This document shows, piece by piece, positions 18,203 through 20,634 of a stretch of 20,634 nucleotides of DNA. Source of the DNA: a virus (lineage: Duplodnaviria; Heunggongvirae; Uroviricota; Caudoviricetes); IMG/VR virus record IMGVR_UViG_2740892218_000001, positions 1 to 20,634 of that record. One strand, written 5' to 3'. Below the pieces are notes generated by a model, which was given only the letters and a program-made list of their open reading frames with translations, had not been told where the DNA came from and ran no database searches. A program made the translations under genes and the position numbers. Numbering within the stretch: the first letter of the stretch is position 1; every line of letters begins with the position of its first letter.

Positions 18203-18640
18203 TTATTTCAGGCATTGCGTCCTGATGTATTCCTGCAGGTAGTTAACCTGCGCGGTTATCCTGTCGATTCCACTTCGGAGACGGTAATAATTGAGTTCAG
18301 CATCTGCTGTAAGTCTTGGGCTTTCTCCATCGCCCATGCCGCTGGCTCCGGTCGTTGACTTTGCACAGGTGGCGGCGACTTGCAGGCGCTTACGACCAGC
18401 AGAAACATCAGCACGGAGACTTTCGATAGTCGCGTTAGCATCAGCAAGCTCCTTTGTATATCTGGCATCGAGTTCTGCTACATCACGTTGACGCTTCTGC
18501 ATATCAGCGATTGTGGATGTGGCCTTATCGCGCTGCTCTTTGTAGGTAATGGCGTTATCACGGTAATGATTAACAGCCCATGACAGGCAGACGATGATGC
18601 AGATAACCAGAGCGGAGATAATCGCGGTGACTCTGCTCAT
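18203..18640 (-). CDS. Rz: Spanin inner-membrane subunit Rz (i-spanin), 145 aa
   Basis: [34 protein letters not shown] matches the lambda Rz N-terminus as recalled, then diverges; ATGA overlap with the R stop. Confidence 0.85.
18256..18441 (-). CDS. Rz1: Spanin outer-membrane lipoprotein Rz1 (o-spanin), embedded in the +1 frame of Rz, about 61 aa
   Basis: Internal ATG at 18441 preceded by AAGGAG with a 7-nt spacer; [20 protein letters not shown] gives a lipoprotein signal with lipobox-like VSAC; mature part is Pro-rich ([16 protein letters not shown]), as typical for Rz1. Confidence 0.65.
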
Positions 18641-19113
18641 ACCTCAATCTCTCTGACCGTCCCGCCCGCTTCTTTGAATTTTGCAATCAGGCTGTCAGCC
18701 TTATGCTCGAACTGACCATAACCAGCCCCCGGCAGTGAAGCCCAGATATTGCTGCAACGGTCAATTGCCTGACGGATATCACCGCGATCAATCATCGGTA
18801 AAGCGCCACGCTCTTTAATCTGCTGCAATGCCACAGCGTCCTGGCTTTTCGGAGAGAAGTCTTTCAGGCCAAGTTGCTTACGATAGGCATCCCACCAACG
18901 GGAAAGAAGCTGGTAACGTCCGGCGGCTGTTGATTTGAGCTTTGGGTTTAGCGTGACAAGTTTGCGAGGGTGATCGGAGTAATCAGTGAATAGCTCTCCG
19001 CCAACAATGACGTCATAACCATGATTTCTGGTTTTCTGTCGTCCGTTATCAGTTCCCTCTGACCACGCCAGCATATCGAGGAACGCCTTACGTTGATTAT
19101 TGATTTCCACCAT
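18637..19113 (-). CDS. R: Endolysin R (lytic transglycosylase), 158 aa
   Basis: [62 protein letters not shown]... is near-identical to lambda R as recalled. Confidence 0.95.
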
Positions 19114-19420
19114 CTTCTACTCCGGCTTTTTTAGCAGCGAAGCGTTTGATAAGCGAACCAATCGAGTCAGTACCGATGTAGCCGATGAACACGCTCGTTA
19201 TATAAGCGAGATTGCTACTTAGTCCGGCGAAGTCGAGAAGGTCACGAATGAACCAGGCGATAATGGCGCACATCGTTGCGTCGATTACTGTTTTTGTAAA
19301 CGCACCGCCATTATATCTGCCGCGAAGGTACGCCATTGCAAACGCAAGGATTGCCCCGATGCCTTGTTCCTTTGCCGCGAGAATGGCGGCTAACAGGTCA
19401 TGTTTTTCTGGCATCTTCAT
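19097..19420 (-). CDS. S: Holin S (class I) with dual-start motif, 107 aa
   Basis: [62 protein letters not shown]... is near-identical to lambda S as recalled; Met1-Lys2-Met3 dual start and the upstream sdi hairpin (CCCCTTATTGGGG, plus 19424-19436) are present. Confidence 0.95.
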
Positions 19421-19662
19421 GTCTTACCCCCAATAAGGGGATTTGCTCTATTTAATTAGGAATAAGGTCGATTACTGATAGAACAAATCCAGGCTACTGT
19501 GTTTAGTAATCAGATTTGTTCGTGACCGATATGCACGGGCAAAACGGCAGGAGGTTGTTAGCGCAACCTCATGCCACCCGCTTTCACGAAGGTCATGTGT
19601 AGAAGGCCGCAGCATAACTATCACTGATGAATTCAGGATAGCCAGTGGCTACGGCTCAGTTA

Positions 19663-19738
19663 TGGTGCTGGTTAACGGACTTGAACCGCTACCCATTCGC
19701 TTACAAGGCGACTGCTCTACCATTGGAGCTAAACCAGC
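19663..19738 (-). tRNA. tRNA-Thr (anticodon UGU), 76 nt with encoded CCA
   Basis: Folded by hand from the minus strand: perfect 7-bp acceptor stem (GCTGGTT/AACCAGC), U8, 4-bp D stem (GCTC/GAGC) with a GG-containing loop, anticodon loop CTTGTAA, T-arm AGCGG-TTCAAGT-CCGTT, discriminator A, CCA. Confidence 0.75.
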
Positions 19739-19743
19739 ATGTT

Positions 19744-19818
19744 TGGCGGGGCAGCGTGGACTCGAACCACGATAAGAAGGTTAACAGCCTTCCGTAATGA
19801 CCTTTATACGACTGACCC
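19744..19818 (-). tRNA. tRNA-Asn-like (anticodon GUU), atypical and possibly a pseudo-tRNA, 75 nt
   Basis: Perfect anticodon stem (GAAGG/CCTTC) with loop CTGTTAA and perfect T-arm (CGTGG-TTCGAGT-CCACG); anticodon and T loops match E. coli tRNA-Asn as recalled; but one U-C mismatch in the acceptor stem and only a 3-bp D stem. Confidence 0.5.
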
Positions 19819-19822
19819 AAAT

Positions 19823-19864
19823 AAAAAAAGCCACCGTTGCAACTTAAGAGTCACTAACGGCAGC
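19823..19864 (-). terminator. Candidate tR'-like terminator of the short late leader transcript (hairpin followed by U7)
   Basis: Minus strand GCUGCCGUU...AACGGUGGC pairs over 9 bp (two G-U pairs) around a 17-nt loop containing a CTTAAG palindrome, followed by TTTTTTT; lies about 35-75 nt downstream of a TTGACA hexamer at 19898-19903. Confidence 0.35.
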
Positions 19865-19909
19865 TTATGCGAATAGTGTTGCTCATTTGCTCAATGATGT
19901 CAACACGTT

Positions 19910-20398
19910 CTATGCTACATGTTTAATTTTCTCTACACGTTTCCGGTTTTTAAACGCACTATCCAGAACCGGGTAAATCATAAACAACGAAGCATTGAGG
20001 ATTTCGTCAACTTCCCGGCGACAGGTTGCGAGCGATGGTTTTTGAATACGCCCGCCGCCCCGGCATAACATCTTGCGAGGTCTTGCGACACGATGATAGT
20101 AAGATGCAATGGCATGCTTGGAAGATCCATGAGCGTAGTAGCTGAGGAGGATGCCAAAGGCTTTCTTGTCAATGTACATGACGGAATCGACGACCTGAGA
20201 AATCAACATTCCATCATCATCATTACACATTGGCCTTGTCATAACTCTTCCCGGCTCTACGCTCTCCATGAACTTCGCTATTACGCTGCTCATGCGCTTT
20301 TCCAGACGACCTGAATAAACCCATGCGCCCCACAGTTCAAGCCAGCCATTCAGCCAATCGTGCTGTTCTTTGGTGAGGTTTAGTTCTCTTATGCCCAT
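19910..20398 (-). CDS. Q: Late-gene antitermination protein Q (Q21/933W-type family), 162 aa
   Basis: Position immediately upstream of tRNAs and the S-R-Rz cassette; N-terminal LELWGAWV segment resembles the ERWGAW motif of 933W/phage 21 Q as recalled; GGGAGAA RBS upstream of ATG. Confidence 0.7.
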   Translation of the reverse strand: MGIRELNLTKEQHDWLNGWLELWGAWVYSGRLEKRMSSVIAKFMESVEPGRVMTRPMCNDDDGMLISQVVDSVMYIDKKAFGILLSYYAHGSSKHAIASYYHRVARPRKMLCRGGGRIQKPSLATCRREVDEILNASLFMIYPVLDSAFKNRKRVEKIKHVA

Positions 20399-20440
20399 GC
20401 GACTTCTCCCTTGTTATCTGGAATGTTTTTTACTGAGAAC

Positions 20441-20634
20441 GTCATGCGGCCTCACTTCTGCTATTTCGCAGGTCTTTGAGTTTCTGTTGGTACTCTGCCT
20501 TGATCGCCTTGCACTCTTCGATAGTCCAGCGATGGCGGTTATGGTTTGATTCGATTTCGTCTACTGCTTCCTGCCCGATGCGGTTAATCAGTTCGACGCG
20601 ATACGGAACGAGATTTCCGCTTTTGTGCTGGTTG
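20441..20634 (-). CDS. Partial CDS (C-terminal 64 codons; start lies beyond the window end), unknown nin-region-type protein
   Basis: Open minus-strand frame to the window edge ending at TGA 20441-20443: ...[63 protein letters not shown]; not in the ORF track because it has no in-window start. Confidence 0.35.

Follow-up and report, generated by a model that had tools for sequence, protein, structure and literature searches.

Late-gene switches of lambdoid phages

The closest described system is the late-gene switch of phage 21. Its mechanism has been solved at atomic resolution for a sequence identical to the one considered here (Yin 2019, 10.1101/651190; Shi 2019, PMC6606751), and structures are available as PDB entries 6P18, 6P19 and 6JNX. 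The Q-binding element (QBE) of 21Q consists of direct TGAGCA repeats located between the -35 and -10 boxes (Shi 2019, PMC6606751). The same system has been described in terms of the 8-bp subsites QBEu and QBEd, the sigma-dependent pause element (SDPE) and a nozzle (Yin 2019, 10.1101/651190). Antitermination requires C:G pairs at positions -21 and -13, Q residues H95, A124, R127 and R128 are positioned to read bases, and a scaffold from which the C residues of +1..+20 were removed yielded a 20-nt RNA without CTP (Shi 2019, PMC6606751). Both studies observed in vitro activity of the identical phage 21 sequence, and Q-dependent read-through was obtained on 21PR'-21tR' (Shi 2019, PMC6606751). In both accounts, polymerase that has initiated at PR' pauses as sigma region 2 binds the -10-like element again, and one Q21 protomer each occupies QBEu and QBEd, the upstream one making a ring in the RNA-exit channel around the nascent RNA; in the absence of Q, transcription ends at tR'. 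According to both, the Q ring blocks pause and terminator hairpins, and the resulting complex is processively termination-resistant (Yin 2019, 10.1101/651190; Shi 2019, PMC6606751). Q21 and Q of phage lambda are analogues and not homologues (PMC9388147).

Identification of the cassette

The window, that is, the whole stretch of DNA analysed here, comprises 20,634 nucleotides (positions 1 to 20,634 of IMG/VR virus record IMGVR_UViG_2740892218_000001, Caudoviricetes). In a megablast search the segment 19800-20420 matched phage 21 (OL657228) at 98.1% over its full length, and in the alignment with OL657228 every base from the Q stop codon to the start of tRNA-Asn is identical on the minus strand. 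Positions in OL657228 were converted to window positions by subtracting them from 21921. At the corresponding positions this entry annotates the -35 box, QBEu and QBEd, the -10 box, the start site, the SDPE and the terminator; equivalent promoter, qut, terminator and leader-RNA features are present in AJ237660, an older phage 21 entry, and in the Sf6 genome. As judged by these alignments, the cassette is an already known one, the late promoter, QBE, SDPE and tR' of phage 21, base for base. The features are as follows.

19910 to 20398, minus strand: Q antiterminator gene of the Q21 family, 162 amino acids (open reading frame, Pfam PF06530, identity to PDB sequences)
19898 to 19903, minus strand: -35 box TTGACA of PR' (annotated late-promoter -35 of phage 21 in OL657228, identical here)
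19888 to 19895, minus strand: QBEu, upstream Q-binding subsite ATTGAGCA (OL657228 annotation and identity)
19880 to 19887, minus strand: QBEd, downstream Q-binding subsite AATGAGCA (OL657228 annotation and identity)
19875 to 19880, minus strand: -10 box AACACT of PR', overlapping the last base of QBEd (OL657228 annotation and identity)
19868, minus strand: transcription start, +1, an A (OL657228 annotation, in agreement with the numbering of Shi 2019)
19861 to 19867, minus strand: SDPE, -10-like TAAGCT(G), +2..+8 (OL657228 annotation and identity)
19828 to 19866, minus strand: tR' terminator hairpin, +3..+41 (fold, covariation, annotated terminator in phage 21 and Sf6)
19823 to 19829, minus strand: U7 tract of tR', +40..+46 (sequence)
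19866 to 19819, minus strand: terminator as annotated in OL657228, transferred to the window
19744 to 19818, minus strand: tRNA-Asn (GUU), from +51 of the PR' transcript (ARAGORN; Rfam tRNA, 54.2 bits; also in phage 21 and Sf6)
19663 to 19738, minus strand: tRNA-Thr (UGU) (ARAGORN; Rfam tRNA, 61.5 bits)
19421 to 19661, minus strand: leader of the lambda type preceding S, annotated in CUS-3 as 'boundary sequence bsq3' (96.7% identity to lambda 44946-45186)
19097 to 19420, minus strand: holin/antiholin S, lambda-type, 107 amino acids, the first late gene (Pfam PF05106, E = 2.4e-30)

The Q gene is intact in the prophage. It has 162 codons (20398..19910 on the minus strand) and ends with a TAG stop at 19912..19910. 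Its product matches Pfam PF06530 (Phage_antitermQ, E = 1e-24) and does not match PF03589, and 161 of its 162 residues are identical to phage 21 Q in PDB 6JNX and 6P18. The sole change, E14D, is absent from the DNA-contact residues listed by Shi 2019. A lambda-type PR'/qut, with a non-repeat QBE and a -35-like element beside the pause element, was considered as well; it was rejected, as Q matches PF06530 and not PF03589 and the QBE is a direct repeat. Since the two Q proteins are only analogous, the element is a Q21-type cassette and not one of the lambda type.

Inside Q, at 20073-20105 on the plus strand, the window also retains an intact antisense promoter, paQ of phage 21. Its CII-binding site TTGCGAGGTCTTGC (20073-20086) and -10 box TAAGAT (20100-20105) both equal those annotated in phage 21. 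By itself, the pattern TTGC-N6-TTGC is no rarer than chance in the window.

The promoter and the Q-utilisation site

Q lies on the same strand as the cassette and immediately upstream of it, the -35 box beginning 7 nt past the stop codon. A sequence-only reading of the window had noted the TTGACA just past the Q stop (19898-19903, minus strand), a hairpin followed by U7, and then tRNA genes and S. It had read the interval 19823-19909, directly after Q, as a late promoter resembling PR' with a Q-utilisation region and a terminator resembling tR'. The observations are borne out: six bases, AACGTG, separate the stop from the hexamer, which thus starts at the seventh base, the hairpin (19866..19828) is followed by seven U at 19829..19823, and tRNA-Asn, tRNA-Thr and a lambda-type holin S follow. 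The interval brackets the whole cassette, and the assignment itself is supported by the identity to the phage 21 PR', QBE, SDPE and tR' together with the 161 of 162 residues shared by Q. The same reading had found the -10 box not obvious and the promoter therefore tentative. The promoter assignment is supported, and the -10 box can be identified as AACACT at 19880..19875, 17 bp from the -35 box. This box matches the consensus at three of six positions, A2 and T6 among them. At the sequence level the region thus has the -35 and -10 boxes of a sigma-70 promoter with a spacing of about 17 bp.

The QBE consists of two near-identical octamers, ATTGAGCA and AATGAGCA, in tandem within the promoter spacer (19895..19880, minus strand), with the core TGAGCA and a period of 8 bp. 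The initial transcribed region contains a -10-like element, TAAGCT at +2..+7 (19867..19862, minus strand), which is a predicted pause element. As far as the sequence can tell, the Q-utilisation site is two-part, the QBE repeats in the promoter spacer being one part and the -10-like pause element at +2..+7 the other. With +1 at 19868, positions -21 and -13 are the C at 19889 and the C at 19881, each being the C of TGAGCA, and the first C beyond +20 falls at +21. Three statements of Shi 2019 thus fit this numbering, which indicates that the start site is correctly placed.

None of this depends on consensus matching. TTGACA occurs six times in the window, with 14.8 copies expected, and as it is no commoner than chance, the hexamer alone carries no weight. 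A generic promoter and terminator scan of the region called neither PR' nor tR'. This is explained by the -10 box, with only three of six consensus positions, and by the two-tier hairpin, which exceeds the loop limit of the scan; the scan is thus uninformative and was not counted as contrary evidence. The case rests on the 100% identity to the phage 21 region, which has been characterised by experiment, on the conservation of the layout in 43 genomes and on the covariation in the hairpin.

The tR' terminator

Past the pause site, and before the late genes, there is an intrinsic terminator. The hairpin has 11 lower pairs, a bulged A, six upper pairs and a CUUA tetraloop, with a G+C-rich core from the G at 19864 to the C at 19830, and is followed by a run of exactly seven U. 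Its predicted energy is -21.2 kcal/mol (z = -3.65), and none of 200 shuffled sequences was as stable. The 5' arm overlaps the SDPE transcript. As this arm begins at +3, the terminated leader should be scarcely longer than the hairpin itself, about 45-50 nt.

The structure is conserved. RNAalifold applied to ten diverse leaders of the phage 21 layout gave the same two-tier hairpin, with compensatory double changes in five of the 16 pairs. A covariance model built from these ten leaders (R1) recovered all 17 loci of this layout with E < 1e-9. A search of Rfam 15 with the region 19000-20634 (E <= 1) yielded only the two tRNAs and one chance snoRNA match, and none for the leader.

Conservation in the Q21 family

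A scan with one genome per species produced 43 loci that encode a homologue of Q (49-99% identity), in Escherichia, Shimwellia, Pantoea, Erwinia, Yersinia, Photorhabdus, Xenorhabdus, Serratia, Morganella, Providencia, Proteus, Edwardsiella and others. The same layout recurs in the 43 genomes with the same order and spacing: TTGAC, two repeats, a -10 box, TAAGNT and a terminator. In 38 unique homologous sequences anchored on the -35 box, TTGAC is invariant. The QBE repeat with its 8-bp period is kept throughout the family: among these sequences T at repeat position 3 is found in 87% and 100% of the two copies, and C at repeat position 7, corresponding to -21 and -13, in 89% and 89%. The TA of the SDPE is invariant in 40 unique loci, where TAAGNT predominates; the element lies 33-37 bp, mostly 36 bp, from the start of the -35 box.

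A hairpin with a U-run is found within about 110 nt of the predicted start in nearly all Q21-family loci, in one of two layouts. In the phage 21 layout the hairpin begins in the SDPE transcript, and the U-run is at about +39..+41 in all such homologues; this is the case in the window, Sf6, Pantoea, Erwinia, Izhakiella, Rosenbergiella and Edwardsiella. In the other layout, seen in Yersinia, Photorhabdus, Xenorhabdus, Morganella and Proteus, there is a separate G+C-rich terminator at +52..+109. We also considered a first hairpin starting in the SDPE of the separate-terminator homologues, and rejected it as unsupported after alignment, covariance-model and shuffling tests. Indeed, a MAFFT/RNAalifold consensus over 24 leaders had no structure. 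Among the separate-terminator homologues, model R1 recovered one locus (L011), two others (L012 and L045) being marginal only (E 0.06-0.07). Shuffling of individual separate-terminator leaders gave a median z of about -1.2, and the SDPE pairing arose by chance in 7-87% of shuffles.

The initial transcribed region is conserved beyond the SDPE. In 24 diverse Q21-family leaders conservation reaches 90% or more at each of T+7, G+8, C+9, T+12, T+16 and G+17, and the motif CTTA(A/G)G reappears at about +21..+26, including in genera with a separate downstream terminator. By inference, pause-site constraints together with common descent are the most economical explanation of both. We consider it rather doubtful that this region is an extra determinant of pausing or of Q21 loading, or a stabilising 5'-terminal stem-loop. 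An extra determinant would be compatible with the in vitro work, since the templates used there were altered or C-less in the initial transcribed region.

Several loci are unusual. In one metagenome-assembled genome of an uncultured Enterobacteriaceae (L046, approximately 1600-1680) there is a single QBE subsite, and the -10 and pause region is shortened; this may be a crippled late switch. Short contigs assigned to Segatella copri (L005) and Cellvibrionaceae (L009) metagenome-assembled genomes carry a Q21 cassette with Q 99% and 83% identical, respectively, to that of the window. Most likely these are mis-binned contigs of enterobacterial phages.

Covariation of Q residues and repeat bases

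Across 35 loci, the identity of several Q residues is correlated with that of repeat bases. At repeat position 4, all loci with R128 have G (AATGAGC) and all those with N128 have T (AATTAGC). Histidine, tyrosine or leucine at position 95 occurs with A at repeat position 8, and R95 with C. R124 is found where the core GGAC replaces GAGC. The covariation of residues 95, 124 and 128 with the repeat bases supports the repeats in these loci as real Q sites. At the sequence level it also hints at a recognition code with discrete specificity classes of Q; the covarying sequences are not phylogenetically independent, and the pattern is thus a lead and not a proof. It was not found in the text of Yin 2019 (10.1101/651190). 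If real, such a code could help to predict cross-activation among the late operons of different prophages, including stx expression.

Downstream genes and mosaic structure

The late genes downstream are on the minus strand: S, R and Rz, with P22-like virion genes further on. The gene of tRNA-Asn begins 4 nt past the U7-A-UUU tail of the terminator. As it starts at +51, there is no room for a separate tRNA promoter, and the tRNAs should come only from read-through of tR'. Cleavage by RNase P at tRNA-Asn would free a 5' fragment nearly equal to the terminated leader. Position 4:69 of the tRNA-Asn acceptor is a U-C mismatch in the window versus U-U in phage 21.

The 242-nt spacer between tRNA-Thr and S folds far beyond its shuffles (z = -6.98). 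A further G+C-rich hairpin within it, GGCAUGAGGUUG...CAACCUCCUGCC with GUUUUG after it (19575..19540, minus strand), may act as an additional weak terminator or have a role in processing or stability. The lysis cassette (18203-19420, minus strand) is of the lambda type and encodes the S107/S105 holin, the R transglycosylase and Rz. An open reading frame for an Rz1-like lipoprotein is embedded in Rz (18256-18468).

The rest of the window matches the P22-like phages IME10, HZ41 and APC_JM3.2 at 94-97%. With its P22-like remainder, phage 21-type Q, PR', tR' and tRNAs, 241-bp lambda-type leader and lambda-type S, R and Rz, the window is thus a mosaic. Many Salmonella P22-like phages match only from +2 (19867) onward, and HK446 and mEp506 only from the U-tract (19828) onward. 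Given these breakpoints, the transcription start and the terminator end behave as recombination joints. Such alignments suggest that modules were exchanged separately, one being Q together with its promoter and QBE, another the terminator and a third the tRNAs. The 101-bp cassette is present in 745 of 5426 complete E. coli genomes (about 14%), in 385 of them at full length.

Predicted mode of regulation and alternative explanations

Almost certainly, the element is the phage 21 version of the Q-dependent switch that controls the late genes of a lambdoid prophage. The present analysis covers the identity of its elements to phage 21, the intactness of Q, the fold and covariation of the hairpin and the conservation in the family; the start site, pause, Q binding, nozzle and read-through rest on published work with the identical sequence. 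By this identity we infer that the cassette would be active in this particular prophage.

The sequence of events would be as follows. The E. coli sigma-70 RNA polymerase would initiate from PR' at A 19868, and rebinding of sigma region 2 to the -10-like TAAGCT (+2..+7) would cause a promoter-proximal pause; in vitro the paused complex backtracks to about +14. Without Q, the polymerase would resume, transcribe the hairpin (+3..+41) and the U7 tract (+40..+46) and terminate, releasing a leader RNA of about 45-50 nt, and neither the tRNAs nor the genes for lysis and structural proteins would be expressed. When Q has accumulated, two protomers would occupy the ATTGAGCA and AATGAGCA repeats in the spacer, touching the paused polymerase. 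The upstream protomer would form a ring, the 'nozzle', in the RNA-exit channel, and as the nascent RNA would be threaded through this ring, hairpins could not form. The modified polymerase would then pass tR' and proceed to tRNA-Asn, tRNA-Thr, S, R, Rz and beyond. Engagement of Q would be needed within the first 40 nt.

Two other explanations deserve consideration. The hairpin and U7 closely follow the Q stop codon, and they might mainly be the end-of-operon terminator of the early rightward (nin-Q) transcript, TTGACA being a chance occurrence and there being no late promoter; the lack of enrichment of TTGACA in the window and of a promoter call in the generic scan agree with this. However, the identical PR' of phage 21 has been reconstituted in vitro with respect to transcription, pausing and Q loading, and TTGAC, the repeats, the -10 box and TAAGNT stand at fixed spacing in 38-40 unique homologous sequences, which is unlike a chance hexamer. 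Thus the absence of a late promoter is very improbable. The terminator tR' would also halt non-antiterminated polymerase arriving from upstream, and this role may coexist with the main one.

It is equally improbable that the element is chiefly a promoter with an attenuator producing tRNA-Asn and tRNA-Thr constitutively, with a secondary role in the control of the lysis genes. PR' is indeed the sole promoter near the tRNAs, as tRNA-Asn starts at +51, and PR'-type promoters are constitutive in lambda, and some leakage through tR' is expected. However, in most cassettes of the Q21 family no tRNA follows the promoter, QBE, SDPE and terminator, and the tRNAs are thus optional cargo; the strong hairpin with U7 argues for low tRNA output in the lysogen. 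Besides, this explanation differs in emphasis and proposes no other mechanism. Both the early-operon terminator and the tRNA promoter were rejected as sole explanations, and the preferred reading remains the Q-dependent switch of the phage 21 type.

For annotation, this reading has the late operon begin at 19868 and places the two tRNA genes and the lysis cassette under predicted Q control in this prophage. The prophage thus carries an apparently intact late switch of the phage 21 type, a module common to many Stx2 phages. Nothing is added to the known mechanism of Q21.

Comparison with known systems

Besides the cassette, phage 21 shares with the window the succeeding genes of tRNA-Asn and tRNA-Thr. 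The differences are few within the switch: Q of the window carries E14D, and between 19930 and 19744 (minus strand) there is a single base change, located in the 3' acceptor arm of tRNA-Asn. They are larger downstream. Phage 21 has the S21 pinholin and a SAR endolysin, unlike the lambda-type leader and lambda-type S, R and Rz found here, and the virion genes of the window are P22-like.

In genome type the window resembles the P22-like Sf6 and CUS-3, which have the same order of Q, PR', qut, tR', tRNA-Asn, tRNA-Thr and lambda-type S, R and Rz, and a near-identical sequence from the SDPE onward. However, the DNA of Sf6 Q shows only about 85% identity. Sf6 has the repeats ATTAGCC and TTTAGCC and the -10 box CATAAT, and the Q residues are altered to match (R95, N128).

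With tRNA genes that follow the late terminator and precede the first late genes, the window recalls the Stx phages of the 933W type; the tRNAs of 933W are presumably ileZ, argN and argO. Many Stx2 phages have a Q that is 96-97% identical to that of the window at the DNA level, whereas the window contains no stx genes.

The leader of lambda is about 194 nt long, versus about 46 nt in the cassette of the window. The PR'-qut-6S RNA-tR' region of lambda has the same general organisation: a constitutive promoter immediately follows Q, with the QBE in its spacer, the polymerase makes a sigma-dependent pause where it meets a -10-like element, and both an intrinsic terminator and a nozzle in the RNA-exit channel are present (PMC9388147). 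However, Q of lambda (PF03589) is not homologous to Q21 and binds as a monomer to a non-repeat site (PMC9388147), and it requires NusA and a -35-like element.
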